From Akkermansia muciniphila (GTDB lineage: Bacteria > Verrucomicrobiota > Kiritimatiellia > RFP12 > JAAYNR01), in contig CAMBQN010000008.1 of assembly GCA_945870025.1 (NCBI GenBank), forward strand, positions 34,666 to 98,665: a DNA stretch of 64,000 nt, in the 5' to 3' direction. Positions 3,886-30,950 of this stretch are shown here, one piece after another. Numbering within the stretch: the stretch's first letter is position 1; each line of letters starts with the position of its first letter. The translations under genes were made by a program, and so were the position numbers. The notes beneath the pieces are model-generated. The model had not been told where the DNA came from, did not search any database, and worked only from the letters and a program-made list of their open reading frames with translations.

Positions 3886-5718
3886 CTACTCCACCCCCGG
3901 GCTGAAGCCTTCCTCAATCAGCGCCATGAACCCCAGCAGGCCGCCCCAATGGTAGAGGGCATCGCTGCTGGTGGTCTTGTCACACCCCTCGCCGGTATCG
4001 GCGTTGTAGTTCTCATGGACGTGGCCCTTCTCCTGCCACTCCTTCAGAATGAGCGCCTTGGACTTCTCCACGAGATCGCGCCGCGCCTGATCCAGCGGAT
4101 AATTCCGCATGCCCAGGTAGACCAAGAAGTTCATGGGCGCCCAGATCCGTCCGCGCCAGTACATTTGATCGGCATAGGCCGGATCGTCGCGGCTGATGGA
4201 GGGCATGATCCAGTCGCCCCAGAACTTCTTCGGATTGTAGAAATGCTCCTCGATCATTCGCTGCGCCTGCTCCGGCGTGGCCACCCGGGCCAGCAAGGCG
4301 TAGAAGTTGGTCGGCGAAATGCGCGGACTCAGCTCGCCGGTGTCGGTGCGCTTGTTCAGGAACATCCCCGCCACGTCATCCCACAACGGCTGCAGGTTCT
4401 TCCGGTATAGGTCGGCCCGGTCGCGCAGTTCCTTCTCCTCCGCGGTCCGGCCGATGATCGCCGCACAATCGGCCAGGCATTCGCAATCCGCTACGTAGAG
4501 CGAGGTCAGCCCCACGTCGGCCAAGGCCATCTGATGCCGCTGGGCATCGAACGGGATCCCGTCGTACATGGGCGAGTTATCGAGGCCCGACTCCAGCACC
4601 GAAGCGAACAGGATGTTGGAAAAGGCATTCGAATGCCCCGGGATCGTAGGCTCGCACGGCGTGGAACCCCAGCAGAGCAGGCCGCCCGTGTCACGATGCG
4701 CGGGCCACCAGCGGTTCCACCGAAGCAGGGCCGGAAAGACCTGCTCCACCAGCCACTGGTCGCCAAACTTCCGGTAGAGCATCTTCAGCGTGATCGATCC
4801 AACCGGCGGCTGGGAGCGGTCATTCGACTTGAAGCCGCAGCCGCGGGAGTCGTTCGGCACGAAGCCGGCCGGGGAGGCTTCACCGGTGATCTCGATCAGG
4901 TTGGAGTAAGCCAGTTCGCGACTGTCGAGCCCGGCCATGGCGGCCGCGAAGTAGGTATCCCAGCAGAACAGCATGTAGCCGCCGCCCAGGACGTTCCAGT
5001 TCCGGCTGACGGTCGAAACCACGCGATCCTTCTGCGGCTCATAGATCGTATCCCACGCCAGCGAAGCCTGTACCGGCTCAAAGACCGCGGCCAACGCGCC
5101 GAAGCGCTGCGTGCTCTGCCGCAGGGCTTCCAGACGCCGCGCCACGATCGCGCGGATCTCATCGCCGGTCCGTGCGCGGCCCGTGGACACCAGCACCGGC
5201 TTGTCCAACGGAATCGCCAGGTACGGAGTCTGCGTCTGAATATTGTATTCTTCGACCGGATCATTGACACTGACAACCTGGATCGTCCGCGAGGGGGCCT
5301 CGCACTGCAGCGTGTTCCCCACACGCTTCAGGCTTCCCGTCCGGTTCCAGAGCATGCCGGATTCGAGCACCAGCAGCGGCGCCGGCGTATGCGCCGACTC
5401 CGGCGTGACCAGCAGCACCCAATCGCCCTCCTCGACGGCGGTCTGAACCCGAATCTTAACGCCGCGCCATTCCAGGTGGACTTCCGTGTACGATCCGTCC
5501 GTCGCGTGCGGACCCGGGCGGACGTGCTCCTCCTCATGCCCGCCCTTGCCGAACAGCGCCTCCTTCAAGTGAACGCCGTCAATCGGATGGCGAAGTCCGA
5601 GATTGATGGCAAACGCTTCCGGCAGCAACACGTGCGAGAGCACACTGCGCGTGTTCCACGTGTTCCAGCCGCGGGCGAGGCCGGCTTTTAGGTCTTCGTA
5701 CTGCTTAAACATAACCAA
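3886..5718 (-). CDS. (alpha/alpha)6 six-hairpin glycoside hydrolase, GH63/mannosylglycerate-hydrolase-like
   Basis: A 610 aa ORF is tightly packed between GH3 and GH29. It has an N-terminal beta-sandwich plus a C-terminal helical barrel, with YWRGRIWAPMNFLVYLG and WDTYF segments typical of GH63/GH37-like enzymes. Family assignment is uncertain. Confidence 0.5.
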   Translation of the reverse strand: MVMFKQYEDLKAGLARGWNTWNTRSVLSHVLLPEAFAINLGLRHPIDGVHLKEALFGKGGHEEEHVRPGPHATDGSYTEVHLEWRGVKIRVQTAVEEGDWVLLVTPESAHTPAPLLVLESGMLWNRTGSLKRVGNTLQCEAPSRTIQVVSVNDPVEEYNIQTQTPYLAIPLDKPVLVSTGRARTGDEIRAIVARRLEALRQSTQRFGALAAVFEPVQASLAWDTIYEPQKDRVVSTVSRNWNVLGGGYMLFCWDTYFAAAMAGLDSRELAYSNLIEITGEASPAGFVPNDSRGCGFKSNDRSQPPVGSITLKMLYRKFGDQWLVEQVFPALLRWNRWWPAHRDTGGLLCWGSTPCEPTIPGHSNAFSNILFASVLESGLDNSPMYDGIPFDAQRHQMALADVGLTSLYVADCECLADCAAIIGRTAEEKELRDRADLYRKNLQPLWDDVAGMFLNKRTDTGELSPRISPTNFYALLARVATPEQAQRMIEEHFYNPKKFWGDWIMPSISRDDPAYADQMYWRGRIWAPMNFLVYLGMRNYPLDQARRDLVEKSKALILKEWQEKGHVHENYNADTGEGCDKTTSSDALYHWGGLLGFMALIEEGFSPGVE

Positions 5719-7044
5719 TTATTTCAGCATGAATTCGACGACCGGGATTACCGTTTGGGGCGGCTTCTGAGGCAGCGTGATGGCCAGCGCCGTGGATGAG
5801 ATGCCGCAAATTTCAGCCCGTTCCTTTTGCCAATCATCCAGACCGCGCAGGGCGACCTCGGAGCCGTCGTGGAGCAGTTGGGCATACGCCACGGGCGGCA
5901 TCCCCTCGATGTAGACGGTCTTGTACGGCCAGGCGAAGAGGTGCAGGTAGATCCGGCGCGTCTGCGGATTATAGGTCAGGCGGCAGTCCGGCGGGCACTT
6001 GATCCCCTCGGGTGCGGCCGTGCAGCCATGGATGGCACGGCTGTGATAGCGCATCCACTCCGCGTAAGCCTGGAGCCGCGCCACGGCGCGGTAATCAAAC
6101 AGGCCACGCGACGTAGGCCCGACGTTCATCAGCAGATTGCCCCCCTTGGCCACGCAATCCACCAGCGTGCGAATCAGCTCCTCAGGGCTGCGCCAGCTCT
6201 CCTCATCCCGGTTATACCCCCAGGAGCCAGAGAACGTCTGACAGGCTTCCCACACCACCGGCTGGCCGTTTTTGATCAACTGCTTGCCGGGCTGGAACTG
6301 CTCGGGGGTGACGACATCGCCCACGCCGGGGAGGTCAAGCCGGTCATCCACAATCACATCCGGCTGCAGTTTGCGCACCATCTTGATCAGCTTCTCGGAT
6401 TCCCAGTCATTTCGTCCCTTGCCGTCTTCGCCGGGGTAGGAGAAGTCGAACCAGAGGATATCGATCTTGCCGAACTGGGTCAGCAGCTCCTTCACCTGAT
6501 CGCGCATGTATGCCGCGTATTTGCGCACATCGCGGTGCTTGGCCTTCTCGCGCGCCTCCTTGTCGCCCCGCTGCGGGTGGATCTTATCGATCGGGAACTC
6601 CGGGTGATGCCAGTCGATGAGCGAGTAATAGAAGCCCACCCGTATCCCTTCGGCGCGGAAAGCCTCGACCAGCGGCCGCAACAGGTCCTTACCGCACGTC
6701 GTTTGGGTTGCCTTGTAATCGGTATGCTTGGAATCCCAGAGGCAGAACCCCTCGTGGTGCTTGGTGGTGATGACGAAATACTTCATCCCCGCTTCCCGGG
6801 CCAGGCGCGCCCACTCCTTGGGGTTGTACAGGTCGGGATTGAAGTAGTCGAAATACTTCTGGTACCCCTCGTTCGTGATGTTCTCCCAGTTGCGGATCCA
6901 CTCATGCCGGGCCGGCATGGAATAGAGACCCCAATGGATAAACATGCCAAACCGAGCCTGAGTGAACCACGACGTATCCCCCTGCCCGAACGGCGCCGCC
7001 GCCGGCTGCGCCACTCCTGCCGCTTTCTTCGTAGCCATGATCAT
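5719..7044 (-). CDS. GH29 alpha-L-fucosidase
   Basis: The GMFIHWGLYS hallmark is present, as are ILWFDFSYPG and HHEGFCLWDS. Length is 441 aa. Confidence 0.85.
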   Translation of the reverse strand: MIMATKKAAGVAQPAAAPFGQGDTSWFTQARFGMFIHWGLYSMPARHEWIRNWENITNEGYQKYFDYFNPDLYNPKEWARLAREAGMKYFVITTKHHEGFCLWDSKHTDYKATQTTCGKDLLRPLVEAFRAEGIRVGFYYSLIDWHHPEFPIDKIHPQRGDKEAREKAKHRDVRKYAAYMRDQVKELLTQFGKIDILWFDFSYPGEDGKGRNDWESEKLIKMVRKLQPDVIVDDRLDLPGVGDVVTPEQFQPGKQLIKNGQPVVWEACQTFSGSWGYNRDEESWRSPEELIRTLVDCVAKGGNLLMNVGPTSRGLFDYRAVARLQAYAEWMRYHSRAIHGCTAAPEGIKCPPDCRLTYNPQTRRIYLHLFAWPYKTVYIEGMPPVAYAQLLHDGSEVALRGLDDWQKERAEICGISSTALAITLPQKPPQTVIPVVEFMLK

Positions 7045-7202: not shown

Positions 7203-8936
7203 TCATAGAGGCTTTGTGGCTTCAACTTCCGGTTTTAGAATAACCGGAATCTCCACAATCGACACCGAGCGTCGCGGGAAGGTGACGCGCAACTTGCCGC
7301 CGGTAACCGCGACCGGCTGGCTGCGCTCGGTCATCCAGCCTTTTCGCACGGCCACCTGATCCTCCGGCGTACCCTCGAGCAGGTGCTGCACGGACTTGCC
7401 ATCGGGTGGTGACAGCGCGGTGAGATCCAACTCCGCCTCCTGGTCGGCATCAAAGGCGCGGTTGATGGCATGCACGAAGACGGCCTTGTCACTGCGCGTG
7501 GCCACCACGTCCAGCAGGGCCACCTTCGGTCGGGCATAGGGCCAGTTGATCTGATAGGGCTGAGCTACGACCGGCACATGGGTGGCCTGAATGGCCAGCA
7601 GACGATCGCCGTGGTGCAGGTTGTAAAAAGTGGTCGCCGCGCCCTGCGCGTTGTAGTGTGCGGGCATCTTCCCGGTTGGATCCACGCGAATGGCGGCAAT
7701 CCCCCAGGAGTGCCCCACGAGCATGGACTGATTCGCGATATGAATCACGTCGGCATGCCGCAACAAACCGTTCAGAAACCCGGCGCAGCCGATCGCGGCC
7801 GCATGACGCCAGTCCAGGCCGTCACCCAGACTGACTGCCTCCTTGCCACTCCACCCGTTCCAATTCCACTCCGTCGAAGCGATTTCATAGCCGTACGTCT
7901 GCAACCCGCTGCCGAACCCCTGACAGTTGCCCGCGTCATCGAAGAAGCCCGGCATCGTGGCCCAGGCCAACCACCAGTCAGAAGATTTCATGGATTCGCG
8001 CGGCACCGGTTTGCCCTCCAGCTTTGCATCCGACACGCTGCCAAACGGCGAATAGAAGTGATGCGTAAGATAACGGACGCGCTTCTTGATTTCGGGATCG
8101 ACATACAACTGAGCCTCAACAGGAAACCCGACCTGAGCATCTGCAATGAACTCGATAGTCGGATCCACCGCGCGCATGGCCTCCACATACGCGATCAGGC
8201 ACTCCCGATACCACGGGAGCAGCACGTCCACCTTGTCGCTGCCGAGCGCCTTCTTTACCTCCTGCGGAAAGCGGCCGCACCACCACTCGTTCCCGATCTG
8301 GAAGATCTTCACACCGTACGGCGCTGGATGTCCGTTCTTCGTGCGCACGGTTGGCCAGTCCGGCATGCCGTCCGGGAGCTTCGCGCCCACCGGCGCGTTG
8401 GCGTAGGCCACCAGCCCGGCCGCGTGCTGCGCGGCCTCGGCCAGCGGCTTCTTCTTCGCCAGCGCGTCGAGAAAGTTGACAACCAGAATGCTGTCCCATT
8501 TGAGGTCCGCGGCCAGGCGCAGGTATTCATCGTAACCAAAGCGGTTGGCGATCTTGTGCCCCTGGTGCCCCGTGGTCATTGGCCGTTCCGGCGCACGGCC
8601 CGGCACGTTCGACACCATGTCCGTCCAATCGATGAAGTCAATATCCGTCCCGCCCGGGAACCGCACAATCGGAATCCGCATGGCGCGCAGCATCTCCACG
8701 ACGTCTGCCGACAAATTCCCGTTCGTGCCGGCCGCAATCTCCGGTCCCGTCTCGCCCCAACTCGGACGCTCCAGAAACTGCCCAAAGAGGCGGTGATCGA
8801 TCTTGTGTAGTGCATTCGTTTCCACGCGGATGCGGATGGGCTCGCGGGCTTCCGCGCTTTGCGCGGCACCAGCAACCAGAGCTAACGATGCGATCATGAT
8901 GGCTCCCAGAGATTGTCGGTTCGGATGTGACCTCAT
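7203..8936 (-). CDS. Secreted clan GH-A (beta/alpha)8 glycoside hydrolase, GH51 arabinofuranosidase-like
   Basis: A signal peptide is present (MRSHPNRQSLGAIMIASLALVAGAAQSAEA). VRFPGGTDIDFIDW and FQIGNEWWCG match a GNE-type acid/base motif. A C-terminal beta-sandwich follows. Confidence 0.55.
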   Translation of the reverse strand: MRSHPNRQSLGAIMIASLALVAGAAQSAEAREPIRIRVETNALHKIDHRLFGQFLERPSWGETGPEIAAGTNGNLSADVVEMLRAMRIPIVRFPGGTDIDFIDWTDMVSNVPGRAPERPMTTGHQGHKIANRFGYDEYLRLAADLKWDSILVVNFLDALAKKKPLAEAAQHAAGLVAYANAPVGAKLPDGMPDWPTVRTKNGHPAPYGVKIFQIGNEWWCGRFPQEVKKALGSDKVDVLLPWYRECLIAYVEAMRAVDPTIEFIADAQVGFPVEAQLYVDPEIKKRVRYLTHHFYSPFGSVSDAKLEGKPVPRESMKSSDWWLAWATMPGFFDDAGNCQGFGSGLQTYGYEIASTEWNWNGWSGKEAVSLGDGLDWRHAAAIGCAGFLNGLLRHADVIHIANQSMLVGHSWGIAAIRVDPTGKMPAHYNAQGAATTFYNLHHGDRLLAIQATHVPVVAQPYQINWPYARPKVALLDVVATRSDKAVFVHAINRAFDADQEAELDLTALSPPDGKSVQHLLEGTPEDQVAVRKGWMTERSQPVAVTGGKLRVTFPRRSVSIVEIPVILKPEVEATKPL

Positions 8937-9033: not shown

Positions 9034-10203
9034 TCAAGCGAACTCTAGACAGCGCTTGCGGTAGTGCATGTAGTTCTCGAAACTCACTTCCTCAGGCACA
9101 CCGTGGTCGCAGGTTGGCGTATAGCCGCCGCGCGCCTGCATGGCCGGGAAGATGCGATCCACCATCGCATCAATCGCCGTGGGCCCCTGCGCGAGCACAC
9201 GCTTGTCAACCCCGCCCGACATCACCAGCCAGGGGTATTGCTTGCCGATTTCGACCACATCGCACCCGGACGCCACTTCGAAGGGACTCATCACATCCAC
9301 CCCAATCTCCCGATAGAGCGGAATAACCGGATTGCAGTAGCCGTCGGTATCGATCTGGAAGAAGACATGCCGGCGCTTATCGATGTTCCGGCGCTTGATG
9401 TTGGTGTAAAGCTGCTGGTAGTAGGGAAACAGGAATTCCCGGATCATGTCCGGCGAAATCAGCGAGCCATGGTTGTAGCAGATATCTTCCCCGAAAAAGA
9501 GTTCGTCAACAGTCACGAACTCCTGATGGCGCGCGGCCGCCGCGTCGGCCACGTCAAACCAGGCCCGCATGCAGTCATGGATCAGTTCCGGTTCGTCGTA
9601 GAACTTGTAGAGCAGGTCGCCGGGCCCAATGAGGCTCCGCAGGTACATGTAGCCGCCGGCGACATGTTGGGTGACGATCTGTCCCTCTGCGGCGCCGCTC
9701 AACGCCCCCTGACGAGTCTCTTCGATCTTGCCCCAGCGTGACGGTGTCTTCGGATCCAGCCTCCATTTGCACTTCTCGATCCAGGACTTCATGTCCTTGA
9801 CCGGGTGGTCCACATACTCCGGCATGAATCCGCTCCGGCGGCCCTTGAAGCAAAGCACCCCGCGGCCGGCATGATCCTGCACCAGCTCGTATTCGCCGCG
9901 GTCTTCCAGCACCTTCTCCTCGAAGGTGGGCGCAAAATCCGCCTCGCACCAACCGGCGCCCCACAGACCGCACCCGGCGTTACCCTTCTGGTATTGAAAC
10001 AACTCCCACATCCGCCCCCACGGGTCGTCTTTCGGAAGGTGCCCTTCGCCAATCCAGCGGTCCAGACAGTAGAAGCCGAACTCCTTCTGCAGGAACGGGG
10101 CGCCCGGCGTGATGGCATACGTATCGCGAATCTTGCGGGCCGCGGGCGACATCCGGTCGCGCGGCACCATCGCGTGAACTCCATCCTGGCTGCATTCACT
10201 CAT
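9034..10203 (-). CDS. Uroporphyrinogen decarboxylase (URO-D)-like family protein, paralog D
   Basis: The protein has a URO-D/MtaA-like fold. The start is placed at MSECSQDG because ggag lies 6 nt upstream. It is one of four divergent URO-D-like paralogs in the window. Confidence 0.65.
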   Translation of the reverse strand: MSECSQDGVHAMVPRDRMSPAARKIRDTYAITPGAPFLQKEFGFYCLDRWIGEGHLPKDDPWGRMWELFQYQKGNAGCGLWGAGWCEADFAPTFEEKVLEDRGEYELVQDHAGRGVLCFKGRRSGFMPEYVDHPVKDMKSWIEKCKWRLDPKTPSRWGKIEETRQGALSGAAEGQIVTQHVAGGYMYLRSLIGPGDLLYKFYDEPELIHDCMRAWFDVADAAAARHQEFVTVDELFFGEDICYNHGSLISPDMIREFLFPYYQQLYTNIKRRNIDKRRHVFFQIDTDGYCNPVIPLYREIGVDVMSPFEVASGCDVVEIGKQYPWLVMSGGVDKRVLAQGPTAIDAMVDRIFPAMQARGGYTPTCDHGVPEEVSFENYMHYRKRCLEFA

Positions 10204-10406
10204 GTTAAGCTCCTTTCCGTCCGCCACGCGAGCGCCCGCTACGGCAGACAGCCCTCGGCTCTCCGGTAGTGGCGATCCTTTGTCTGTTTTCTTCTGCGGT
10301 CTTTCGTTCGACATTCAGAGTTCCTTGTTCGATATTCTGCGGTTCAGCAGCCTGGTCGGCACAACAACCGTGCTGATCAAACGCTAAGCCCGACAGGCTG
10401 CTAGGA

Positions 10407-11204
10407 TCACGCTACTGGCGTAACCGTCGGCCATGCCCCGCGAACAGATCCTTGATGGCGAATCAGAGTCCAAAAATCACTCGAGGCCGGGTCGGGCGTT
10501 ACAGGCGCCTGATTCGACCCGATGTAAAGGCAACCGACTTCGCCGGGAGGCAGCAAGGTTATCAGGCTGCGAGCTTGCTCCCGCGCGGCCAGCCATTTTC
10601 GCTTCAGCACGCCGAGATCAATAGGGTTCTGCAAACTCAGTCGTCCCATATCCGCCTGCGTGTAAGCCGTGTGACGGCTCGCCTGCGCCAACAGGAACTC
10701 GGGCGTGAAGCCGGGATCCTTCCCGCAAGCCGCCCACGCCAACGCGCCAAGCGATAAATAGGTTTCGTGCAGATGCATGACATCCACGAAATCGCGGACC
10801 TCACTCCGCCCAGCCAGAGCCAACATCTTGTTGGTGGCCGCGTCGGCATCGTGCAAACGGTAGCCGCAAAATGCGTCCTGCTGCACCGGGAAGAACCGGA
10901 AGGCGCTGTCCTGCGCCCATTCGACCTTTAATTGTTGTGCGTCAACCGTCACAACGGCACGGTGGAACGTGGGTGTCCGCAGCGTCCACTCGAGACGATA
11001 TCCGGCGTCACGAAGTGTCGCCGCGTCCTGCTCCGCGCAACTCGCGATACTGTCTTCCACGTCGTGGAACAAATCGATGTCCTGCGAGAAACGGGGACTA
11101 TTGCGGTCTCGATGAAGCACAGTGGCTCCGGCGAGATAGCTCTCCGGACTGCGGTTCGCGGCCATGCATCGCAGCACCACCGCCTGAATGTCACTTATCG
11201 GCAT
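10407..11204 (-). CDS. AbiEii/DUF1814-like nucleotidyltransferase (type IV TA toxin-like)
   Basis: The motif GATVLHRDRNSPRFSQDIDLF matches the AbiEii GGTxL...R.S.DID consensus. Length is 265 aa. It sits inside the glycoside hydrolase operon. Confidence 0.6.
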   Translation of the reverse strand: MPISDIQAVVLRCMAANRSPESYLAGATVLHRDRNSPRFSQDIDLFHDVEDSIASCAEQDAATLRDAGYRLEWTLRTPTFHRAVVTVDAQQLKVEWAQDSAFRFFPVQQDAFCGYRLHDADAATNKMLALAGRSEVRDFVDVMHLHETYLSLGALAWAACGKDPGFTPEFLLAQASRHTAYTQADMGRLSLQNPIDLGVLKRKWLAAREQARSLITLLPPGEVGCLYIGSNQAPVTPDPASSDFWTLIRHQGSVRGAWPTVTPVA

Positions 11205-11538: not shown

Positions 11539-13842
11539 CTACGCGCCGACCACGACGCGGATGTGGGCCTCGCGCCCCGGAGGCAGTATCGGGATCAGAT
11601 TGCCGGCCACCGGTTTCCCGTCAACGTACAGTTCCTTCACCCGCTTCGAAACACCCTCGGGCGCTTCGATCGTGATGTGGTAGATGCTGCCTCGATACGG
11701 ACGCTTGACGGTGATCTTCGGCCAGGTGGACGGCAACCGGGGATCCACGCGCAACCCGTCGAATTCCGGGGTGATCCCCGCAAAGCCCTCAAACAGGACC
11801 CGGTACATCCAGCACACGGTGCCGCTGTTCCAAGGGATGCCCGTGCGGCCGAGCTGACCGGAAGGCGCCGTGTTCGTGTAGGAGGCGTACACGTAAGGCT
11901 CGACCGTGTGCTCCGCCCATTTCTGGCTCATGTAGGCCGGAATCAGTTTCTTGTAGAGCTCCAGCGCGCGATCCTGGTGACCGATCTTGCATTCCGCCAA
12001 CATGACCCACGTCACCGCGTGGTGCCAACTGCTGCCATTGTGATGATGCCCGGCGGCATATCTCGTGATCATGCCGATCCGTTTCTGGATCTTCGTGTAG
12101 GGCGGCGTCATCAGGGGAATGCCCACGGGCGTGTCCATCAGCTCCTGGACCGCCTCCATGCTCGTCAAGGCCCGGTCCGCCGGTGCCACGCCGGACAGGA
12201 TTGCCCAGGCCTGCGGGTTCACCCAGATTCGGCCTTCCTCTTCCGTGCTCGATCCGATGACGCCGCCGTCATCGTCAAACGCCAGCAGATACCAGCGGCC
12301 ATCCCAGCAATTCGTATTGATGGATGCGGCCAGTTCGCGCGCCTGCGCCAGAAAACGCGCCGCGTCGTCCGCATGCCCCGTGCGCAGGGCCAGCTCGTGC
12401 ATGTCCATCAAGTTGTGGTGATAGAACAACCCCATCCAGACGCTCACGCCGGTGTTGGCGGACCCCACCAGGCAGTCGTTCCAGTCGCCGCACTTGGTCA
12501 GGGGGAGGCCGAATCGCCCGCTTTCCTGCTTGATGTAATCGATCGCCCGCACGCAATGCTCGTAGACGGTTCCCTCGCCCCCATCCGCATAGCTGAACGT
12601 GTGGTCGAGCCATCGATAGTCGCCGGTCTCGCGAATGTGCCGGGCGGTCAGCCAGGTCAACCACAGCGGAAGGTCGGAGTTGATGGTGCGATGATGGAAC
12701 GAGCCGAGAAGATGGACGTCATGACGCGTGCACCCATCGCTGAATTGCGTTTCCAGAACCAGGGTCAGCCGCGCCCTGGCGCGCTCCGGATCATACGCCG
12801 TAACCGCGCCCATGTCCTGAGCCGTGTCGCGCACACCGAACCGGGAGTAGTACCGGGTGAACATGTTATAGCGGTGCCAGTTGTTGGCAAAGCGGGTCAT
12901 GTCGCTGTCCGGCAATTCGATGGTCATCCGGCCCAGATAGTCCGTCCACCACTGTTTCAAGGCGGCAAACGCCGAATCCGCCTGAACAACCGTTCCGTAT
13001 TTGGCCCGGATGCGACCGGCATCGGAGGGATCTTTGGCCATGCCCACCAGAACGACGAGGTCTGCGGATGCACCTGGGGCCAGTGTGATGTCCATCTGCA
13101 ACACGCCGCAACTATCCAACCCCTTGTGCATCGAGTTCCGGCAACTCCCGGTCTGGATGGCTTCGGCGCCGGCAGAGAAACTCCCGGCTCCTGTAAACGT
13201 CTCCAGCACGCAATCAAAGCCGGACGGGGCCGGGCTGGAAGCCATGAAGCCCACGCGATCCCAGGTGCGTTCGAATTTGTTGTAAGTGGTGCGGTAGTCT
13301 ACAAACGGCCAGTGATTGCATTTGCCGATGATCATGCTGTCGGCAAAATACACATCATCGAAGCCGGTTTCATAACCGGTCAGGCCGAAGCGCCAGAGCA
13401 CGCACGGAAACACCCGCAGCGTGCGCGGCCTGTTGCCGGTGTTCTCCAGACGGATCTGCCAAATCTCCGTGGTCTCGTCCACCGGCACCAAGTAGGTCAC
13501 GCGGCCCGCGATCTCGCTGGTCTTTGATTGCAATCGCGTATAGCCGAAGCCATGTGTGCATTTCCAGTCGGCAGGCTGTTTGGCGGAATCCACGCCATTG
13601 ATGGTCCAGACGGCGCCGCTCTCCTGATCACGCACGGCAACCAGGCGCGGATTATTGTCCGGGCAGAGGCAATCGTTCACGGGAGACCGGTCGAACACCG
13701 CCCCCGCGCCCGTTTGCGTAAAGCTCGACTTCAACTGGTCTGTGAAGATCAAGTTGCGCCAGGGATTCTTATGGTCGCGCTGGGTAAAAGAGAACTCTTT
13801 GCCATCATCCGAAAATGACCAGAAATCGCCGCGTAATGACAT
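11539..13842 (-). CDS. Six-hairpin glycoside hydrolase or phosphorylase, GH94/GH36-superfamily-like
   Basis: A 767 aa ORF has an N-terminal beta-sandwich and an (alpha/alpha)6 region (GSSWHHAVTWVMLAE). Family assignment is tentative. Confidence 0.45.
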   Translation of the reverse strand: MSLRGDFWSFSDDGKEFSFTQRDHKNPWRNLIFTDQLKSSFTQTGAGAVFDRSPVNDCLCPDNNPRLVAVRDQESGAVWTINGVDSAKQPADWKCTHGFGYTRLQSKTSEIAGRVTYLVPVDETTEIWQIRLENTGNRPRTLRVFPCVLWRFGLTGYETGFDDVYFADSMIIGKCNHWPFVDYRTTYNKFERTWDRVGFMASSPAPSGFDCVLETFTGAGSFSAGAEAIQTGSCRNSMHKGLDSCGVLQMDITLAPGASADLVVLVGMAKDPSDAGRIRAKYGTVVQADSAFAALKQWWTDYLGRMTIELPDSDMTRFANNWHRYNMFTRYYSRFGVRDTAQDMGAVTAYDPERARARLTLVLETQFSDGCTRHDVHLLGSFHHRTINSDLPLWLTWLTARHIRETGDYRWLDHTFSYADGGEGTVYEHCVRAIDYIKQESGRFGLPLTKCGDWNDCLVGSANTGVSVWMGLFYHHNLMDMHELALRTGHADDAARFLAQARELAASINTNCWDGRWYLLAFDDDGGVIGSSTEEEGRIWVNPQAWAILSGVAPADRALTSMEAVQELMDTPVGIPLMTPPYTKIQKRIGMITRYAAGHHHNGSSWHHAVTWVMLAECKIGHQDRALELYKKLIPAYMSQKWAEHTVEPYVYASYTNTAPSGQLGRTGIPWNSGTVCWMYRVLFEGFAGITPEFDGLRVDPRLPSTWPKITVKRPYRGSIYHITIEAPEGVSKRVKELYVDGKPVAGNLIPILPPGREAHIRVVVGA

Positions 13843-14075
13843 TGCTTACTCCGTATTGCTGTTTCGTCCGTCCGCGCCACCGTTTTGCGGATTGGAAAGA
13901 ATAGCAGGAGATGCAGGGGGGTACAAGGCGAATGCGATAAATCTGAGGGGGATCGATGCATTGCAAACGAACGCGCCTTGTGTCATGCTATTCCCGGCGT
14001 CGAGAACAGAACCGCTCGCATGTCATTAGTGCCTTAACTCTGAAGAACGGCGAAGAAGAACAAAAGGGATGGTCC

Positions 14076-14176
14076 TGTGTGTGAGTGTGTGAGTGTGTGA
14101 GTATGTGGGTGTGTGTGAAGCGACGCACTCACATACTCACACACTCACATACCCACACACTCACATACCCACACAC
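14076..14176. repeat. GT-rich/CA-rich imperfect inverted repeat (hairpin-forming), family copy A
   Basis: The sequence gtgtgtgagtgtgtgagtgtgtgagtatgtgggtgtgtgtg ... cactcacatactcacacactcacatacccacacac lies in the divergent intergenic region between the GH94-like gene and the glycyl radical enzyme gene. Confidence 0.6.
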
Positions 14177-14216
14177 GTGGTTGCGGGCAAAGACCGCGTT
14201 AGGAAAGGAATCTGCC

Positions 14217-16400
14217 ATGTCCACGAAGCTCTCCGCTATCGACTTTGGCATCGCCACCGGCGAGAAACCGCCGCAGCGGCTTCCGGAAACCACGCGCAAG
14301 CTCGCGGAGTGCTACCTCTCGGGCGAGATCGGACGCCGCGTACAACCGGCCTCGTTCGCGATCCCTGACTCTTTCTATGAAGCGATGCCATCCCCAAACC
14401 GGCAATACGCGGAGGCGGTGCGCCTGATCGCCGCGCATGCGCCGCTCCGGATCCTGCCGGGCGAGAAACTGGCGGGCGCCGCCACCCTTCAGGAAGCCAT
14501 GCAGCACGCCGTGCCGCTCCTGCGGCAATCCTATGTGGGCCGCAACCTATCCACCCCGCCGGCGCCGCTCATGTCCTCGGTCAGCCATACCACCCTCGGG
14601 TTCGACAAGGCGCTGCGGGTCGGCTATCGCGGGATCCGCGCGGAGATCCACGCGCGTATCACCCGGGGCGGTCTCACCCCCGACGGCGAGGAACTGCTCC
14701 GCTGCATGCTCGACTGCCTCGACGCGGCCTCAGTCTGGCACGGGCGCCACGTCCAGGCGCTGAAAGAACGCATCGCGGCGAGCACCGGCGCGGAGCGCCA
14801 GGACTACACGGCCCTGCTGGCGGCGCTGCAAAATGTTCCTGAGAATCCTCCTTCGACCTTCCGCGAGGCCGTGCAGGCGCTCTGGCTGCTCTGGGATTTC
14901 CAGCGCCTCTGCGGCAACTGGAGTGGACTCGGCCGTGTGGACAAGATGCTCGGGCCGTACCTCGCCGCAGATCTCGCGGCCGGACGGATCACCCTCGACG
15001 AGGCGCGGGACCTGCTCGCGCATTTTTGGATCAAGGGGTGTGAGTGGATCACGGCGGATGGGCGCGGCAGCGGCGACGCCCAATTCTACCAGAACGTGGT
15101 CCTGGCCGGCGTGGACGAGGCTGGCCGAGAGGTCGCCAATGACGTCACGGATCTGATCCTCGACGTGGTGGAGGAGCTCCACATCAGCGACTTCCCCATC
15201 GCCGCGCGCATCTCGAAGCGCACGCCGGAGCGCCTGCTCCGGCGCGTGGCCGCAATCCAGCGCCTCGGCGGCGGCATCGTGGCGATCTACAACGAGGACC
15301 GCATCATCCCGACCCTCGTGAATTTTGGTTATACCCTGGAGGAAGCGTGCGACTTCGCCAACGATGGATGCTGGGAGCTCTTGATTCCCGGCAAGACCTG
15401 CTTCGGGTACCAAGCCTTCGACGCACTGCAGTTGTTGCAGGATACGCTGGACCTCGGCTCCCCCGATAGGCCGGCGATGGAGTTCGCGACTTTTGATGAA
15501 CTGTACGAAGATTTCCGCCGGCGGCTGGCGTTCCGGCTCACGCAACTGTTCAATGAAACGCGTCGCTCGACGCATCCCACCGTTCTCGTGGATATCCTCG
15601 TGGACGGCTGTATCGAGTCGGGCCGGTCCTACTACGACCTCGGGCCCCGCTACACGGCCCTCTCTCCCCATCCCGGCGGTCTTCCGGATGTGGTCGACAG
15701 CCTACTCGCCATCCGCCGCATCGTCTTTGAGGAGCAGCGCCTGTCGCTGCAGGATTTCGTGGCGACTCTGCGGGCCGACTGGCAGGGACGCGAGGAACTC
15801 CGTCAGTGTATCCGCGCGCGCTTCGGCTTCTTCGGCGGAGGCTCCGCCGAATCCGAGGCCATGATGCGCCGCGTGTTCGACGACTACACCGGGCTCGTTG
15901 GAAAGGTCCGGCAACGGCACGGCATCCTGCGGCCCGCCGGCATCAGCACGTTTGGACGCGAGTCTTCGGACTACCTACCCCATCGTTTGGCCACCGCTTC
16001 CGGCCACAGGAAAGGCGAGATACTGGCCTCCAACTTCAGCCCCTCGCCCGGATCGAACGCCGGCCCCACCGCCGCCATCGCCGCGCACTGCTGCGTGGAC
16101 TTCTCCCGCCTGCCGTGCGGCACCGCGCTGGACCTCAAGATCCATCCCGATTCCGTCCGCGACGAAGAGGGGTTGCAGGCGATGGTCGCCCTGCTCCGCG
16201 CCTTCGTCGAACTCGGCGGCATCTTCCTGCAGATCGACGTCGTGGACGCGGCCATCCTGCGCGACGCCCAGGCACACCCCGAGCGCTACCCGAACCTGTC
16301 CGTGCGGGTCTCCGGATGGTCCGCCCGCTTCGCCACACTGAATCGGGAATGGCAGGAACTCATCATCTCACGGATGGAGGCAATGGAGTTAAACCTATGA
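14217..16400 (+). CDS. Glycyl radical enzyme (PFL2/dehydratase-like) with an atypical Gly-radical loop
   Basis: The C-terminal RVSGWSARFATLNREWQELIISRME resembles the RVSGY glycine radical motif, with Y replaced by W. A candidate Cys loop is FANDGCWE. Length is ~727 aa from MSTKLSAIDFG. The upstream in-frame extension is a GT-repeat artifact. Confidence 0.65.
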   Translation: MSTKLSAIDFGIATGEKPPQRLPETTRKLAECYLSGEIGRRVQPASFAIPDSFYEAMPSPNRQYAEAVRLIAAHAPLRILPGEKLAGAATLQEAMQHAVPLLRQSYVGRNLSTPPAPLMSSVSHTTLGFDKALRVGYRGIRAEIHARITRGGLTPDGEELLRCMLDCLDAASVWHGRHVQALKERIAASTGAERQDYTALLAALQNVPENPPSTFREAVQALWLLWDFQRLCGNWSGLGRVDKMLGPYLAADLAAGRITLDEARDLLAHFWIKGCEWITADGRGSGDAQFYQNVVLAGVDEAGREVANDVTDLILDVVEELHISDFPIAARISKRTPERLLRRVAAIQRLGGGIVAIYNEDRIIPTLVNFGYTLEEACDFANDGCWELLIPGKTCFGYQAFDALQLLQDTLDLGSPDRPAMEFATFDELYEDFRRRLAFRLTQLFNETRRSTHPTVLVDILVDGCIESGRSYYDLGPRYTALSPHPGGLPDVVDSLLAIRRIVFEEQRLSLQDFVATLRADWQGREELRQCIRARFGFFGGGSAESEAMMRRVFDDYTGLVGKVRQRHGILRPAGISTFGRESSDYLPHRLATASGHRKGEILASNFSPSPGSNAGPTAAIAAHCCVDFSRLPCGTALDLKIHPDSVRDEEGLQAMVALLRAFVELGGIFLQIDVVDAAILRDAQAHPERYPNLSVRVSGWSARFATLNREWQELIISRMEAMELNL

Positions 16401-19252
16401 AGATACACATCTCCCCCACCGGCAGTGATCGCGGCGATGGCTCGGAGCAGCGACCCTTCGCCACACCGCAACGCGCGCAGACGGCGGCTCGCAAGAGCAA
16501 GGGGCCGGTACAGGTGGTGGTCCAGGCCGGCGTCTACGAGCTGGCATCGCCCCTGCGTTTCAACCCGGCCGACAGCGGCCAGCGCTGGTCGGCAGCGCCG
16601 GGGAGCAAGCCGGTGTTCAGCGGCGGCCGCCGCCTGTCCGGCTGGTCGGTCGGAACCCGCGAGGGACGTACAGTGTGGACGCTGGAGTTGCCCGAGGTGC
16701 GCGCCGGTGCGTGGTTCTTCACCCAACTGTGGGTCGACGGACAGCGCCGCCGCCGGCCGCAACTGCCGAAGAGCGGGTTCTTCCGCTTCAGCGGCCTCGA
16801 CGGCCAGGGCGACACCGGCTACGCCTGGACTCAGGGGCCTGATCGCGCCGAGTACCCGGCCGGATCGATCAGCCGATTCAGCAACCTCGATGACGTCCAG
16901 GTGGTCACCTACCAATTGTGGTTCGACACCCACCTGCGCATCAAGGAACTCGACGAGCAGCGCCGCGTCGCGCATTTCCGCACCCGGTCACTGGGCAGCC
17001 TGCGCGACGAGGGCGGGCAGTTCGCACGCTTCATCCTGATCAACGTCGGCGAGGCCCTGTCGGAGCCGGGCGAGTGGTACCTCGACCGCGCCACGGGCGT
17101 GCTCACCTACCTGCCGCTGCCGGGCGAAAAGCCCGAATCGGTGACGGTGGTGGCGCCGCGCCTGACCGAGATTGTCCGTTTCCAGGGCTCGCGCAACGCG
17201 GCCGTCGCCGACGTCGTGCTCGAGAACCTCGGCATGGAGCACAACGAGTGGTCGCGTGCGCTGGACAACTGCGGCACGCCGCAGGCCGCCATCGACGTGC
17301 CCGGGGCGGTGGTGTTCGAGCGCGCCGAGCGCTGCGTGCTCTACGGCTGCGAACTCGCCCATCTCGCCGGCTATGGCGTCGAGACGCTCGCCGGCAGCAG
17401 CGGCACCGTCATCGCCGCATGCACCATCCGCGACCTCGGCGGCGGGGCGGTGAAGATCGGCCACGAGGGGGCGGCCGGCGCTAAATCCAGCAAAGAAGGC
17501 CACGGGTTGCGCCCGCAAGCCGCCACCGTCGCAGACTGCCACCTGCACGACGGCGGCCATGTCTACCCCAGCGCAATCGGCGTGTGGATCGGCAACGCCG
17601 GCGGCAACCGTATCCAGCACAACCACATCCACCACTTCGCCTACACCGGGATCTCGTTCGGCTGGACCTGGGGCTACGCGCCCACCCGGACGTGGGACAA
17701 CCGCATCGAGCGCAACCACATCCACCACATCAACCACCAGCGTCTGCTCTCGGACAACGGCGGCATCTACTCGCTCGGCATCCAGCCGGGATCGACCGTG
17801 GTCGGCAACCACCTGCACGACATCGCCTGCTACCACTACGGCGGCTGGGGCCTCTACCCGGACGAAGGCAGTAGCGGCATGCAGTGGCACGACAACCTCG
17901 TGCACCACGTGCAGTACTGCGGCTACAGCTTGCACTACGGCCGCTTCCTCAGCGTGCGGAACAACATCTTCGCGGTCATGGACAAGGCGATGCTGGGTGC
18001 CGGTCGCGCCGACCTCAGTTGTGGTGTGGCGTTCGAGCGCAACCTGATCTGGTTCGACCGCGACAACCTGCAGGCCGAAGCGGACTGGAACCCGGTACTC
18101 TGCGCCACCCGTCGCAACCTGGTGTGGAACGCTGGCAGCGGCGGGGTGAAGTGGCATCTCGGTTCGCTGGCCGGGGAGAACCGCGGGGGGCGCTGGCTGG
18201 AATCGGTCGAGGCCGATCCTCTGTTCGCCGACCCGCGCAGCGGCGACTTCGCCCTGCGCGCCGATTCCCCCGCCCTGGCCATCGGCTTCAAGCCGTTCGA
18301 CTGGCGGAAGGCCGGGGTGCGCACGCGCGGCGTCCTGCCGGCATCCTGGAAAGCCTACCGACTGCCGTCGGCGCCGCCCAAGGCCCTGGCGGTGGCGCGG
18401 ATCGAGGCTGGCCAACTGGTCGTCGTCGACGGTCTGGCCGAGCTGCCGCTGCGCGTGACCCTGACGAACCCCTCGGCCGGTCGCGTGCGCGGCCGCTGGC
18501 GCGTACGCCTCGCCGACGGCGCGACCATGGTGGCCGATCCCGGTCCCCGCCTGGAGGCCGATCTGCCGCCCGGCGGCGAAGTGGTGCGTGAGCTGCGCGT
18601 GCGCCTGCCGGCCACGCACGGACGGCAATGGGTACAGGTGGTCGGCGACGAACGCTCCTGCTTCTCGGCCGCCGTGCCGGTGCGGGTGCCGACGGCCGTG
18701 CCGATGCCGCGCCTGCCCGCAGGCTCGCCCATCGACAGCGGTCTCGACATCGGCGTCGAGCACGCAGGCACCGCCATCCTGAGCGGTCGCGCCGCGGTGG
18801 TCGGCGATGCGCTCGCCCTCGACCTGACCGTGCGCGACGCGACGATGCGCGTCGACCGCGCCAAGCCGTGGCTGGGCGCCTCGGTCGAGGTCTTCGCTGG
18901 CGCCGAGCCGACGCCCGGGACGCAGCCGCAGCCACACCAGCTCATCCTCATCCCTGCCGACGCCCAGGGGCCGGCCGAGGTCCGTCCCGTCGGCGCCTCG
19001 CCAGCGCCAGTGCCGGGCTGGGAGATCACCGCCGTCGACGGCGGCTGGCGCGCCCGGGTGCAGGTACCACTGGCCGCGCTGGGTATCGACCCAGCCGCGC
19101 AGGTGTTCCGCTTCGACATCATCTGCAACGCCACCTCGCCGATCGCGGGCCAGAACTCCCTCAGGCTCGCACGCTGGGGTTCGACGGGCAATTTCAACGA
19201 CATCTTCGGCCTGGCCAAGATCGAGGCGGGGACAACGTGTAGTATCAGTTAG
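16398..19252 (+). CDS. Cytoplasmic right-handed parallel beta-helix repeat protein (pectate-lyase-fold)
   Basis: The start overlaps the glycyl radical enzyme stop (ATGA). Repeated NHIHH/GIY motifs are present (NRIQHNHIHHFAYTGISFGW, NHIHHINHQ, GGIYSLG). There is no signal peptide. Confidence 0.65.
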
Positions 19253-20106
19253 TCCCTGCCGATTTGACGCTGTTGGCCCGGCGTGCGACCGGTCGCCTTC
19301 TTGTAGACCGCACACAGGTAGCGCTCGTTCCGGAAGCCGCAGACCGCGGCAATGGCCTTTAGCGGCAACGTCGTGTGCCGCAGCAGGTCCGTAGCGCGGC
19401 GCACACGGGCCGCGACCAAATAGTGGCTGATCGTGTCACCTGTCCGCCGGACGAACAGATGGCGCATGTGCTCGCCGCTCAAGCCCACTGCTTGCGCAAC
19501 ATCGGCCACCGACGCCACCGTCTGAAGGTGCTCATCAATGTACCGCAGCGCTTTCTGAATATGCACCGTTGCGAGATCGGGGCAAGCCGCAACCTCCGCA
19601 TTCGTCTCCTCGGCGAGCAACCCGCACACGACCGCCGTTCCGCGTGCCTGGTACAAGCACTGCTTCAATTCGTCGGGCGCAGATGGCAGGACGCACAACG
19701 ACAGGATTTCCTTGATGATGCACGGGTCGCAGAGCACCGGGATGTGCAGCGTGCGCCCCGGCCAGGACCGCCGCCCCAACCGGCACCGTACGATCACGCA
19801 GCAGTCCACACCCTCGGTCGCCATACGCTGATCATGGACGAGTCCGGGCGGGTACGCCACGAGGGAACCCGGTGCAAAGTGAAGCTCGGACAAATCCGTA
19901 CCCATTCGCGTTGTGCCTGATCCGCTGGGATGATAGACGATCTCCGTACAGTCATGGGTATGAAACCCGCACTGGTTGCCAGCGGGAAGAACCTGACGGA
20001 ATCCGGTCACAAAGGTCACGTCCAATTGAGTCTGCATCTCACCCTCCCTCCGGCTGATAGCCGGTTTTTGGAATACAAAGCCTGTTCTTGGAATTGCCAA
20101 AAGCAA
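19249..20106 (-). CDS. AraC-family transcriptional regulator (cupin + HTH)
   Basis: The C-terminal HTH_AraC is IQKALRYIDEHL...AVCGFRNERYLCAVYKKATGRTPGQ. It is divergent from the isomerase/ADH operon. Confidence 0.7.
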   Translation of the reverse strand: MLLAIPRTGFVFQKPAISRREGEMQTQLDVTFVTGFRQVLPAGNQCGFHTHDCTEIVYHPSGSGTTRMGTDLSELHFAPGSLVAYPPGLVHDQRMATEGVDCCVIVRCRLGRRSWPGRTLHIPVLCDPCIIKEILSLCVLPSAPDELKQCLYQARGTAVVCGLLAEETNAEVAACPDLATVHIQKALRYIDEHLQTVASVADVAQAVGLSGEHMRHLFVRRTGDTISHYLVAARVRRATDLLRHTTLPLKAIAAVCGFRNERYLCAVYKKATGRTPGQQRQIGRD

Positions 20107-25193: not shown

Positions 25194-25280
25194 GCGTGTG
25201 TGAGTACGTGGGTGTGGGGGTGTGGGGGAGCAGTAACGCTTCTCCCACTCACATACTCACGCACGCGCACACTCACATAC
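25194..25280. repeat. GT-rich/CA-rich inverted repeat, family copy B
   Basis: The sequence gtgtgtgagtacgtgggtgtgggggtgtggggga ... tcccactcacatactcacgcacgcgcacactcacatac lies between convergent genes. Confidence 0.55.
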
Positions 25281-25308: not shown

Positions 25309-26502
25309 TTACCGGTAAACGCCGTACTCCAGACACGTCTCGTACACGGCCTCCAGGTTCGCCAACGGACAGCAGGGCGGCAGGTTGTTTCCTTCTTGGA
25401 GAATGAACCGGCCGCCTTCCATGACGCCGCTCTGGAGGATTTCTTTCGCTCGCGCCGCGCACGCCTCCGGCGTCCCGTAGCGCAGCAGCGCCACGTGCGG
25501 GCCGCCGGAAATCTCAACATCCGGGCCCAACTGCTTCCGAAGCAACCCGTGGTCCACCGGAAACCCCGTGTCGAACGACGTCACGCCCAGCTTCGCATGC
25601 ACCAGTGGCAGGAGCCGCATCACGTCGCCGCACAAATGGATGAAGCGATTGGCAGAAGCCGGCGTGGTCGTCGATATCTCGCTGTAGAAACGTTCGTGCA
25701 ACGGCAGAACCAGCTCCTCGTACATGGACGTGCTGATGAGTTGAATCGAATCGTCCGCCATTCCGCCCCAGGCTCCCTTTTCCCACTTGCCGCTGACGTT
25801 CGCCAGCGCCTGGTTGCGAGTCACCGCCGCGTCAACAATCGTCCGCATCATGGCAACAGCCTTTTCCGGTTCGCTCCCGAGAAGCACAAAGAAGTCTGCT
25901 CCCATCAGAACCGCGGCGATGGTCACGGGACCGTCAAACCATACGTTGAATGGTTGCACGTCCCCCTGGCGGCCCAGGTAGCTGAAGTCCCTGGCGGCCT
26001 TGATCAACTCTGTGCGAAAGGCGAGTTTCTCCCGAACCCACGGGTTCTCCAGCGGACGCGAGAAGTCCCGCTTGATGAACTCGTCCACGTCGCCTTCGCT
26101 CATACACGGCAGATTACTGGGAATCTGGTCCGCATCATAGACCACCGGGCATCCGAAGTAGGCGCCGTCGTACGTATTCAACGTATCCACGCAGAAGCTC
26201 CACCTGTCCGGCAGCTTGCCGGCTGAGTCGCACACGTTGCTCATGACTGTTGCGACGTATTCCTGATGCCGCGCCTGGGCCATCAGCGTAACGCGCGGAT
26301 CCTTGAAGTACTGCTCGAAGGTGTAGCCCTCCGGATTCAGCTCCGGATTGAGCAGCATGATCCGCGGATTCGTGTTCCATCGCAGCGGCACACGCGTCGG
26401 CCTCCGGTCCGCATACGACTTCCATACCGCGGCCTTCTCCGCGTCCGTGACGTTCCGAGACGCCCGATTGCTTGATTCCCGTGTCTTCGTCGCCATTGGC
26501 AT
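25309..26502 (-). CDS. URO-D-like family protein, paralog C, with an MtaA-type H-x-C-G zinc motif
   Basis: Length is 397 aa. It carries IHLCGD and a C-terminal PPCCP, consistent with Zn-dependent MtaA/CmuA-type methyltransferases. Confidence 0.65.
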   Translation of the reverse strand: MPMATKTRESSNRASRNVTDAEKAAVWKSYADRRPTRVPLRWNTNPRIMLLNPELNPEGYTFEQYFKDPRVTLMAQARHQEYVATVMSNVCDSAGKLPDRWSFCVDTLNTYDGAYFGCPVVYDADQIPSNLPCMSEGDVDEFIKRDFSRPLENPWVREKLAFRTELIKAARDFSYLGRQGDVQPFNVWFDGPVTIAAVLMGADFFVLLGSEPEKAVAMMRTIVDAAVTRNQALANVSGKWEKGAWGGMADDSIQLISTSMYEELVLPLHERFYSEISTTTPASANRFIHLCGDVMRLLPLVHAKLGVTSFDTGFPVDHGLLRKQLGPDVEISGGPHVALLRYGTPEACAARAKEILQSGVMEGGRFILQEGNNLPPCCPLANLEAVYETCLEYGVYR

Positions 26503-27750: not shown

Positions 27751-27781
27751 GTCACTTCAACGAACTGGAGGACGCTCCACC

Positions 27782-30919: not shown

Positions 30920-30950
30920 CGTGCTTCCTTTGTTGATTTCCGTTGAGTCA

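Follow-up and report, generated by a model that had tools for sequence, protein, structure and literature searches.

A glycyl radical enzyme of an uncharacterized subfamily overlapping a candidate GH141 glycosidase gene in a carbohydrate-utilization island

Glycyl radical enzymes (GREs) carry out difficult anaerobic chemistry, and only a few dozen of their thousands of sequences have a known function (PMC13450708). The 64,000-nucleotide stretch of contig CAMBQN010000008.1 analyzed here (GenBank assembly GCA_945870025.1, deposited as Akkermansia muciniphila; positions 34,666 to 98,665), hereafter the window, encodes a GRE whose stop codon overlaps the start codon of a beta-helix protein. A previous inspection of the letters by themselves, referred to below as the sequence-only reading, proposed that the two genes form a new two-protein system and that the radical loop of the enzyme is aberrant. 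Does the locus encode such a system, or does it bring together two genes with separate histories? The proposal does not survive comparison with relatives. The locus adds a member to an uncharacterized but recognizable GRE subfamily, and the adjacency of the two genes is a lineage-specific arrangement of two independent functions. We consider it probable that the GRE belongs to a large uncharacterized subfamily of the Cys-x-Glu (CXE; eliminase/isomerase, "PFL2-like") branch, that it is intact and selectively maintained, and that its overlap with the downstream gene, a candidate glycoside hydrolase (GH) of family GH141, is recent and local.

The glycyl radical enzyme and its subfamily

The features of the GRE gene on which the analysis draws are the following.

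14217–16400, plus strand: GRE gene, 727 amino acids (aa) from its ATG (PFL-like and Gly_radical profiles)
14586–14588, plus strand: codon of H124, the counterpart of His164 of glycerol dehydratase (GDH), which is proposed to protonate the leaving hydroxyl (phmmer alignment to 1r8w; H124 is invariant in a 28-sequence alignment)
15360–15377, plus strand: Cys loop NDGCWE, residues 382–387, with C385, which presumably carries the thiyl radical, and E387, the Glu of the CXE motif (aligned with the GCVE of GDH, C433/E435, and of propanediol dehydratase, PD)
16305–16373, plus strand: glycyl radical fingerprint RVSGW-x6-L-x4-Q-x2-I-x2-R, residues 697–719, with G700 as the radical Gly and W701 after it (regular-expression match to the published fingerprint)

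The open reading frame (ORF) matches both profiles that the sequence-only reading had named for checking its assignment, PFL-like (PF02901; 285.8 bits, 1e-84) and Gly_radical (PF01228; 67.1 bits, 2.4e-18), and it has the features of the superfamily, namely a PFL-like barrel, a C-terminal glycyl radical domain, and a centrally located Cys loop. The AF2 model (pLDDT 81, pTM 0.87) superimposes on GRE eliminases with Foldseek TM scores of 0.73–0.81 at 20–24% identity. An exact-sequence look-up of the window GRE returned no matching record; its closest protein homologues come from metagenome-assembled genomes (MAGs) of Lentisphaerota.

We placed the protein among characterized GREs by ranking it against NCBIfam cut-offs and PDB profiles. 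By these sequence comparisons, it is a member of the superfamily that falls outside every named equivalog family. It reached no NCBIfam equivalog cut-off among the models compared (HypD, HpsG/HpfG, CutC, PflD-type, indoleacetate and HPA decarboxylases, and PFL): the scores were 258 bits against a cut-off of 1100 for HypD, 199 against 1050 for CutC, 48 against 994 for PFL, 223 against 1000 for NF048011, annotated as (2S)-3-sulfopropanediol dehydratase, and 221 against 1109 for one further equivalog model. The top NCBIfam model, TIGR01774 (PFL2-3, [quoted passage not shown]), aligns with the GRE nearly end to end (residues 121–723 on model positions 154–785), but the score of 294 bits lies below the cut-off of 678, so that the NCBI rule would not place the enzyme in this family either. 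The closest PDB sequences were PD (5i2a, 2.5e-69) and GDH (1r8w, 5e-64), with CutC, IseG, HypD, Archaeoglobus fulgidus PFL2, and PflD at a short distance behind them (phmmer). When a profile of the whole subfamily was compared with the PDB, C–O dehydratases stood on top (PD 357, GDH 344, and HypD 343 bits), followed by CutC (318), PflD/YbiW (~300), and the C–S lyases (263–287); the decarboxylases and succinate synthases (161–244) and, last, PFL (90) were at the bottom. Identity of the subfamily to each characterized GRE is ~25–30%.

The radical loop had been described as non-canonical because a Trp takes the place of the Tyr after the radical Gly. The published fingerprint of the glycyl radical domain is RVxG[FWY]x6-8[FL]x4Qx2[IV]x2R (PMC13450708), and a 2024 survey states the loop as RVXG[FWY] (PMC11528403); Trp is thus one of the three residues allowed at this position. 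Residues 697–719 of the GRE (nucleotides 16305–16373), RVSGWSARFATLNREWQELIISR, can be broken down as RVSGW-SARFAT-L-NREW-Q-EL-I-IS-R. The suspicion that the Trp might be a sequencing error is equally at odds with the relatives, throughout which the residue is fixed. In a 28-sequence alignment (59–90% identity), G700-W701 and the stretch N382–E387 are invariant; of the best 120 database homologues, 117 have R[VI][SA]GW (RVSGW 59, RISGW 55, RVAGW 3) and 118 have NDGCWE. The Trp after the radical Gly is thus a hallmark of the subfamily that lies inside the accepted range. The characterized enzymes that we inspected carry Tyr or Phe there (RVAGY in GDH, PD, PflD, and YbiW; RVAGF in HPAD), and no paper in the searched literature mentions an RVSGW-type GRE loop. 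Nor is the protein short for its family, as had been thought, 727 aa being normal for a subfamily with a median of 733 aa (120 homologues). About half of the subfamily reads R-I-S-G-W, a mismatch to the strict "RV" of the fingerprint as published, so that GRE searches based on regular expressions would miss such members.

To delimit the subfamily, we scanned one genome per GTDB species for its patterns and fetched 80 loci; in the high-GC loci among the relatives, genes were called heuristically, by taking the longest ORF and applying a GC3 filter. The scan gave 347 confirmed relatives, a lower bound for the number of species genomes with a member, distributed over Lentisphaerota, Planctomycetota, Kiritimatiellia, Armatimonadota, Chloroflexota, Hydrogenedentota, and Bacteroidota. 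Its carriers include a cultured human gut isolate, Alistipes hominis New-7 (locus L071, 9854–12106), where the GRE gene has no adjacent activase. Another member was found in a MAG of Chthonomonas calidirosea (locus L072, 10001–12073), from a genus that we take to be aerobic; an oxygen-sensitive radical enzyme would be odd in an aerobic host. Our literature searches returned nothing relevant on GREs in polysaccharide degraders of the PVC group and Armatimonadota, or on a GRE together with GH141.

Two genes recur around the GRE in these loci. Of the 71 loci whose downstream sequence extends for 900 nt or more, 18 have a PFL-activase-type radical SAM gene directly 3' of the GRE, and two truncated cases have one besides; the count relies on a hidden Markov model (HMM) built from the same loci. 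The other 53 of the 71 are without an adjacent activase. The second is an AraC-family gene of ~290 aa, divergent and upstream of the GRE in 24 of the 80 loci (~30%). These regulators (for example L089 1442–2245 and L005 8901–9764, both on the minus strand) share 34–44% identity along their entire length, also between phyla, and thus constitute a cognate group. In a Pfam census of 132 nearest neighbors, which covered 129 families in all, AraC (23) was the sole recurrent family, with sulfatase at 4, and clustering of ORFs located up to 8 kb from the GRE recovered only the AraC regulator and the activase. Genes for sulfatases, GFO/IDH/MocA proteins, and uroporphyrinogen decarboxylase-like (URO-D-like) proteins occur near the GRE at low frequency, and we judged them to be genome background. 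The same-strand 3' genes of the activase-free loci are heterogeneous and encode GH123-like, GH127, and DUF2961 proteins, an aminotransferase, an AMP-binding enzyme, and a sensor kinase. The conserved, ancestral module of the subfamily is AraC/GRE/activase, with three quarters of the members apart from the activase.

Active-site residues and predicted chemistry

Which reaction might such an enzyme catalyze? The sequence-only reading had likened the NDGCWE loop to the GCxE motif of eliminases, and the alignments are in agreement with it. The loop aligns with the GCVE of GDH and PD and with the GCVE/GCIE of PflD/YbiW, and C385, which is invariant in the subfamily, falls on C433 of GDH and on the catalytic Cys of PD (Cys438). 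In all eliminases, the Glu of the CXE motif forms a hydrogen bond with the substrate hydroxyl and removes its proton, and His164 of GDH protonates the leaving hydroxyl (PMC13450708). Compared with GDH in the phmmer alignment, the GRE keeps C385/E387 (C433/E435), H124 (H164), and S236 (S282), whereas W386 stands for V434, W235 for H281, and Q399 for D447, which is Asp in PD too. Of the four residues His164, His281, Ser282, and Asp447, the last three of which we take, from the 1R8W work, to be pocket residues of GDH, two have a counterpart in the GRE (H124 and S236). The exchanges of D447 for Gln, H281 for Trp, and V434 for Trp indicate that the substrate pocket differs from that of GDH and PD, and the alignment of the GCxE loop with the GCVE of both enzymes makes eliminase-type chemistry the best guess.

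On this basis, the GRE would act on a small molecule with hydroxyl groups, by a CXE-type 1,2-elimination or by opening a C–O ring, in a pocket unlike those of the characterized enzymes. In the mechanism that we propose, an activase encoded outside the window would put the radical on G700, from where it would move on to C385. The thiyl radical would take a hydrogen from a carbinol carbon of the substrate, a small metabolite with hydroxyl groups; E387 would deprotonate the hydroxyl on this carbon, and H124 would protonate the leaving group on the adjacent carbon. The outcome would be either a 1,2-elimination (dehydration) or the opening of a C–O ring. The substrate is likely a glycan-derived small molecule, because the bacteria that carry the subfamily degrade carbohydrates and an AraC regulator is dedicated to it.

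A more specific substrate had also been suggested, namely 1,2-propanediol from fucose or rhamnose. In this reading, which we extend to glycerol, the enzyme would be a dehydratase, and the GH29 and GH106-like enzymes encoded in the window would free the fucose or rhamnose from which the propanediol derives. The genes are present as described, GH29 at 5719–7044 and two GH106-like genes at 27782–30958 and 35449–38832; PD and GDH are the best PDB matches by sequence, profile, and fold, and the equivalents of C433, E435, H164, and S282 are conserved. However, the structure-based identity to PD/GDH is just 22–24% (23% to PD), HypD, CutC, and PflD score nearly as well, and the subfamily bears an invariant signature of its own. 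The three pocket exchanges described above argue in the same direction, and in the 78 loci considered for this question neither an aldehyde dehydrogenase nor any other enzyme recurs as a linked partner, microcompartment shell genes not having been specifically sought. These data make propanediol or glycerol dehydratase activity highly unlikely for this GRE.

The GH141 neighbor and the history of the junction

The gene downstream of the GRE and its junction with it comprise the following features.

16397–16400, plus strand: ATGA overlap, the ATG of the GH141 gene lying over the GRE stop codon TGA at 16398–16400 (read from the sequence)
16397–19252, plus strand: candidate glycoside hydrolase of family GH141, 951 aa, no signal peptide, composed of a beta-helix, a GH141 insertion domain, and C-terminal beta-sandwiches (Pfam, PDB, AF2)
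17753–17863, plus strand: segment with the codons of D453 (17753–17755) and D489 (17861–17863), the counterparts of D523 and D564 of BT1002 (phmmer alignment to 5mqp)

The description of this ORF as a beta-helix protein of 951 aa with the NHIHH motif repeated (twice, at residues 409 and 440) and with no hydrophobic N-terminal segment proved accurate. In Pfam, it matches Beta_helix (PF13229; 51.7 bits, 1e-13) and GH141_M (PF21231; 30.5 bits against a cut-off of 27). The founder of family GH141, BT_1002 (PDB entry 5mqp), was found both by sequence (phmmer, 3.2e-35) and, using the AF2 model (pLDDT 89.8), by fold (Foldseek 1.2e-28, TM(target) 0.74). The catalytic pair of BT1002 is D523, the nucleophile, and D564, the acid/base (PMC10154630). 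Their equation with D453 and D489 assumes an inferred +5 offset of the deposited 5mqp chain, which was the only offset checked that places both positions on Asp, 41 residues apart; D453 and D489 are invariant in 26 homologues. The C-terminal ~300 residues (~660–945; window positions 18375–19231) form beta-sandwich domains, one of which is CBM9-like (1i82 and 7nwo; TM(target) 0.62–0.66). The same phyla contain many full-length homologues (951–1000 aa), which share the start position and the lack of a signal peptide. Based on these sequence matches and the model, the protein is best read as an ordinary cytoplasmic glycosidase of the carbohydrate island and not as an accessory subunit of the GRE.

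The ATGA overlap that had been noted is genuine: four independent Logan assemblies carry the 3' end of the GRE and the same junction at ~98% identity, with the GRE tail reading …RVSGWSARFATLNREWQELIISRMEAMEFNL before the stop and overlapping the same GH141 start. The overlap itself is confined to this lineage. Across the 80-locus genome scan, no other fetched locus has a beta-helix homologue within 10 kb of the GRE, save for GH141 fragments in locus L002, and GH141 stands beside the GRE only in relatives that are at least 90% identical. The informative relative is locus L089 (GCA_037147295.1), whose GRE is 91% identical in amino acid sequence and whose gene order is cognate AraC, GRE, an 875-bp insert, GH141, a second AraC gene, and a Zn-dependent alcohol dehydrogenase, which also comes next in the window. 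The insert (4798–5672), which is missing from the window, holds two ORFs of 66 and 187 aa with no Pfam match, and the spacer between GRE and GH141 in L089 contains no activase or remnant of one. We considered the two ORFs as a toxin–antitoxin pair, which the lack of any Pfam match leaves unsupported.

The boundaries of homology suggest how the overlap arose. In blastn, L089 2341–4797 corresponds to window 13954–16377, and homology returns at 16394, so that only three bases of it precede the GH141 ATG; the homology of the window to L001, L081, and L089 ends in each case within the last few GRE codons. The GRE ends in …MEAMELNL in the window, in …MATKGK in L089, in …MEGKGK in L001, and in …MERKEV in L081, the 76% outgroup. 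Because the three other tails differ from it, the tail of the window protein is derived. From this comparison, a deletion in the window lineage probably removed the spacer that is kept in L089, brought the GH141 start onto the truncated end of the GRE gene, and rewrote its last codons.

Other comparisons bear on the mobility of the GRE gene. The third lineage, L001, has in common with the window the GRE only, in a match that begins 14 nt before the ATG and ends at the stop, and its flanks are unrelated. Between the window and L089, the GRE (14217–16377) is 90% identical in nucleotide sequence and the GH141/AraC segment (16394–19936) 95.8%. This contrast and the sharing of the GRE ORF alone with L001 hint at movement of the GRE gene by recombination or as a cassette. 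Locus L002, a near-identical relative, was rejected as evidence of synteny, since it consists of window segments joined in a mosaic, with GH141 present in fragments only. Its segments, ~75–96% identical and reordered, match window positions 261–522, 1865–3855, 7242–7550, 14577–16388, 17683–18325, 27776–30919 (92%), 32161–35505, and 40926–42102, and 35455–38571 is a weaker (~75%) second match of the 27776–30919 stretch. L002 reflects either extensive rearrangement or a chimeric bin assembly.

Could the two proteins nevertheless work as a pair, with translational coupling securing their stoichiometry and the beta-helix protein binding or pre-processing a sugar-derived substrate for the GRE? The overlap is real and reproducible, the genes are neighbors in two lineages that are ~10% diverged in the GRE (the window and L089), both proteins lack a signal peptide, and the window is a dense carbohydrate-utilization island; the sugar isomerases YbiW/PflD show, moreover, that GREs can use sugar derivatives. 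Against such a pair stands the lack of synteny in every other fetched locus, L002 fragments aside, together with the 129 Pfam families spanned by the nearest neighbors of the subfamily. In L089, the two-ORF insert holds the genes apart; in the GRE relatives with 76–77% identity, the activase takes the position occupied here by GH141; and the closest GH141 homologues outside the lineage (81 and 78% identity) are found in unrelated contexts without a GRE neighbor. The beta-helix protein also has a complete GH141 catalytic apparatus, with the Asp pair intact, and ATGA overlaps are common between unrelated operon neighbors. A functional pair is therefore unlikely, and the overlap amounts to co-transcription at most, not to a conserved two-protein machine.

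Two weaker connections between the genes deserve mention. Their adjacency in both the window and L089 leaves room for a loose functional link through co-expression, which we regard as doubtful. In a bolder version, the subfamily would perform an undescribed radical reaction on a glycan-derived metabolite, and the GRE would here have been recruited beside a cytoplasmic GH141 enzyme whose released sugar, or a derivative of it, is the GRE substrate. We give this version only a small chance of being correct; if it were true, the locus would point directly to the substrate of a subfamily that is present in hundreds of anaerobic polysaccharide degraders.

Several observations weigh against our own interpretation of the GRE as an intact, selectively maintained subfamily member with a recent and local GH141 overlap. 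No activase was found in the 64-kb window, either with an HMM trained on 20 activases from related loci or by tblastn with the activase of the 76% relative, and no window ORF of at least 150 aa contains CxxxCxxC; the sequence-only reading had noted that none is adjacent, and the same holds for all 64 kb, so that activation is an assumption here. The cognate AraC regulator is also absent from the 64 kb. The dN/dS of the GRE is somewhat above that of three neighboring genes (0.08–0.11 for the window/L002 pair). Residues 695–709 of the Gly loop have a pLDDT below 50 in the AF2 model, and the direction of the junction event (deletion in the window as opposed to insertion in L089) is read only from the comparison of C-terminal tails. 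The GRE–GH141 adjacency has been kept in at least two diverged lineages, the window and L089. Finally, the searched literature contained no biochemical data on any member of the subfamily.

The first three of these points could also mean that the GRE was stranded by rearrangement, is no longer activated, and is being lost. The contrast with the two next-closest relatives (76–77% identity, for example L081 and L090), in which the activase (12244–13056 in L081) follows 6 bp after the GRE, would fit such a loss, as would the heavy rearrangement of the region between close relatives and the modest excess of the GRE dN/dS (0.16–0.26 against 0.08–0.11). On the other side, the ORF is intact and every catalytic and signature residue is present and conserved. 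The dN/dS is far under 1 over three lineages that are each ~8–10% diverged, and the 5' region is conserved with L089. The Nei–Gojobori values are 0.26 against L001, 0.16 against L002, and 0.15 against the outgroup L081. Separation from the activase is the norm in the subfamily (53 of 71 loci), and its absence here is therefore not evidence of decay. We consider the loss of this GRE quite unlikely. The substitution data indicate clear purifying selection on the gene, with a constraint that is possibly slightly relaxed.

Together, these data describe a subfamily that is well delimited and widespread, mostly in uncultured polysaccharide degraders, with its own motifs and its own AraC regulator and usually unlinked to its activase. 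With this W/W signature, regulator, and activase separation, it is a reasonable target for the discovery of GRE functions.

Window context and comparison with known systems

Three further features flank the GRE and GH141 genes.

11539–13842, minus strand: divergent GH94-type phosphorylase gene, in the place of the cognate AraC gene of relatives (Pfam Glyco_hydro_94, 2.6e-92)
13954–14216, plus strand: GRE 5' region conserved with L089, including a GT/CA octamer-repeat palindrome (blastn and alignment with L089)
19249–20106, minus strand: AraC-family regulator convergent on the GH141 gene, not the cognate regulator of the GRE (Pfam HTH_18 and HTH_AraC)

The divergence of the GRE from a GH gene, with a GT/CA hairpin between them, had been described correctly: the palindrome (14077–14176) lies within the 374-nt spacer between GH94 and GRE, 40 nt 5' of the GRE start. 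It is imperfect, has 39-nt arms (-87.8 kcal/mol, z = -8.9), and is built of (GTGTGAGT)n and (ACTCACAC)n octamer repeats. Upstream homology to L089 reaches 13954 and takes in a conserved block and the palindrome; beyond this point, GH94 replaces the cognate AraC gene. In L089, the palindrome stands at the corresponding place (~2480–2600) with more repeat units, and related octamer runs occur in the window at 30968–30998, between the ORFs 27782–30958 and 31003–32139, and at 25248–25262. The palindrome matched no Rfam family above threshold (sub-threshold hits were microRNA look-alikes) and showed no sigma-70 or terminator consensus. The AraC regulator at 19249–20106 resembles the cognate group in the HTH region only (~27–30% over ~100 aa) and is syntenic with GH141 in L089.

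The window as a whole is a carbohydrate-utilization island with GH42, GH3, GH63-like, GH29, GH94, GH141, two GH106-like, GH36, and GH116 genes, together with several URO-D-like, GFO/IDH/MocA, and xylose-isomerase-like genes and AraC regulators. Three of the URO-D-like genes are paralogues (9034–10314, 25309–26502, and 38565–39623, all on the minus strand), and the family is found near the GRE in five loci, the window included. The gene at 34321–35424 (minus strand) encodes an aldo/keto reductase fused to a C-terminal 4Fe-4S dicluster domain, which is unusual inside a glycoside hydrolase cluster. There are also two AbiEii-type nucleotidyltransferase toxin genes: one forms part of a pair with an overlapping AbiEi-like antitoxin gene (55079–56419 and 56416–57273, both on the plus strand), and the other (10407–11204, minus strand) lies inside the minus-strand glycoside hydrolase array beside GH94.

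Among known systems, the GH141 protein is to be compared with BT_1002 of Bacteroides thetaiotaomicron (5MQP), with which it shares the right-handed beta-helix, the GH141 insertion domain, and the catalytic Asp pair. It differs from BT_1002 in being only ~23% identical, in having no signal peptide, and in its ~300 extra C-terminal residues with the CBM9-like domain.

For the GRE, the E. coli enzymes YbiW and PflD, C–O lyases of 1,5-anhydroglucitol-6-phosphate and 1,5-anhydromannitol-6-phosphate, share the CXE branch, with GCIE/GCVE loops and a His at the H164 position, and they act on carbohydrate-derived substrates (PMC13450708). They are 27 and 28% identical to the GRE, and their Gly loop is RVAGY. 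Their genes accompany PTS components and an adjacent activase gene (pflC), whereas the GRE subfamily is without such a context.

The nearest characterized enzymes are GDH of C. butyricum (1R8W) and PD of R. inulinivorans (5I2A/5I2G), both C–O cleaving 1,2-eliminases, which have the ten-stranded barrel in common with the GRE (Foldseek TM 0.76–0.80). They are its best sequence and profile matches and share with it the GC-x-E loop, the counterparts of His164 and Ser282, and the radical domain fingerprint. In contrast, their structure-based identity to the GRE is 22–24%, and the GRE N terminus is ~60–110 aa shorter. The GRE has Trp instead of Tyr after the radical Gly and Trp instead of Val within the CXE motif, and its subfamily, usually without an adjacent activase, has an AraC regulator of its own.

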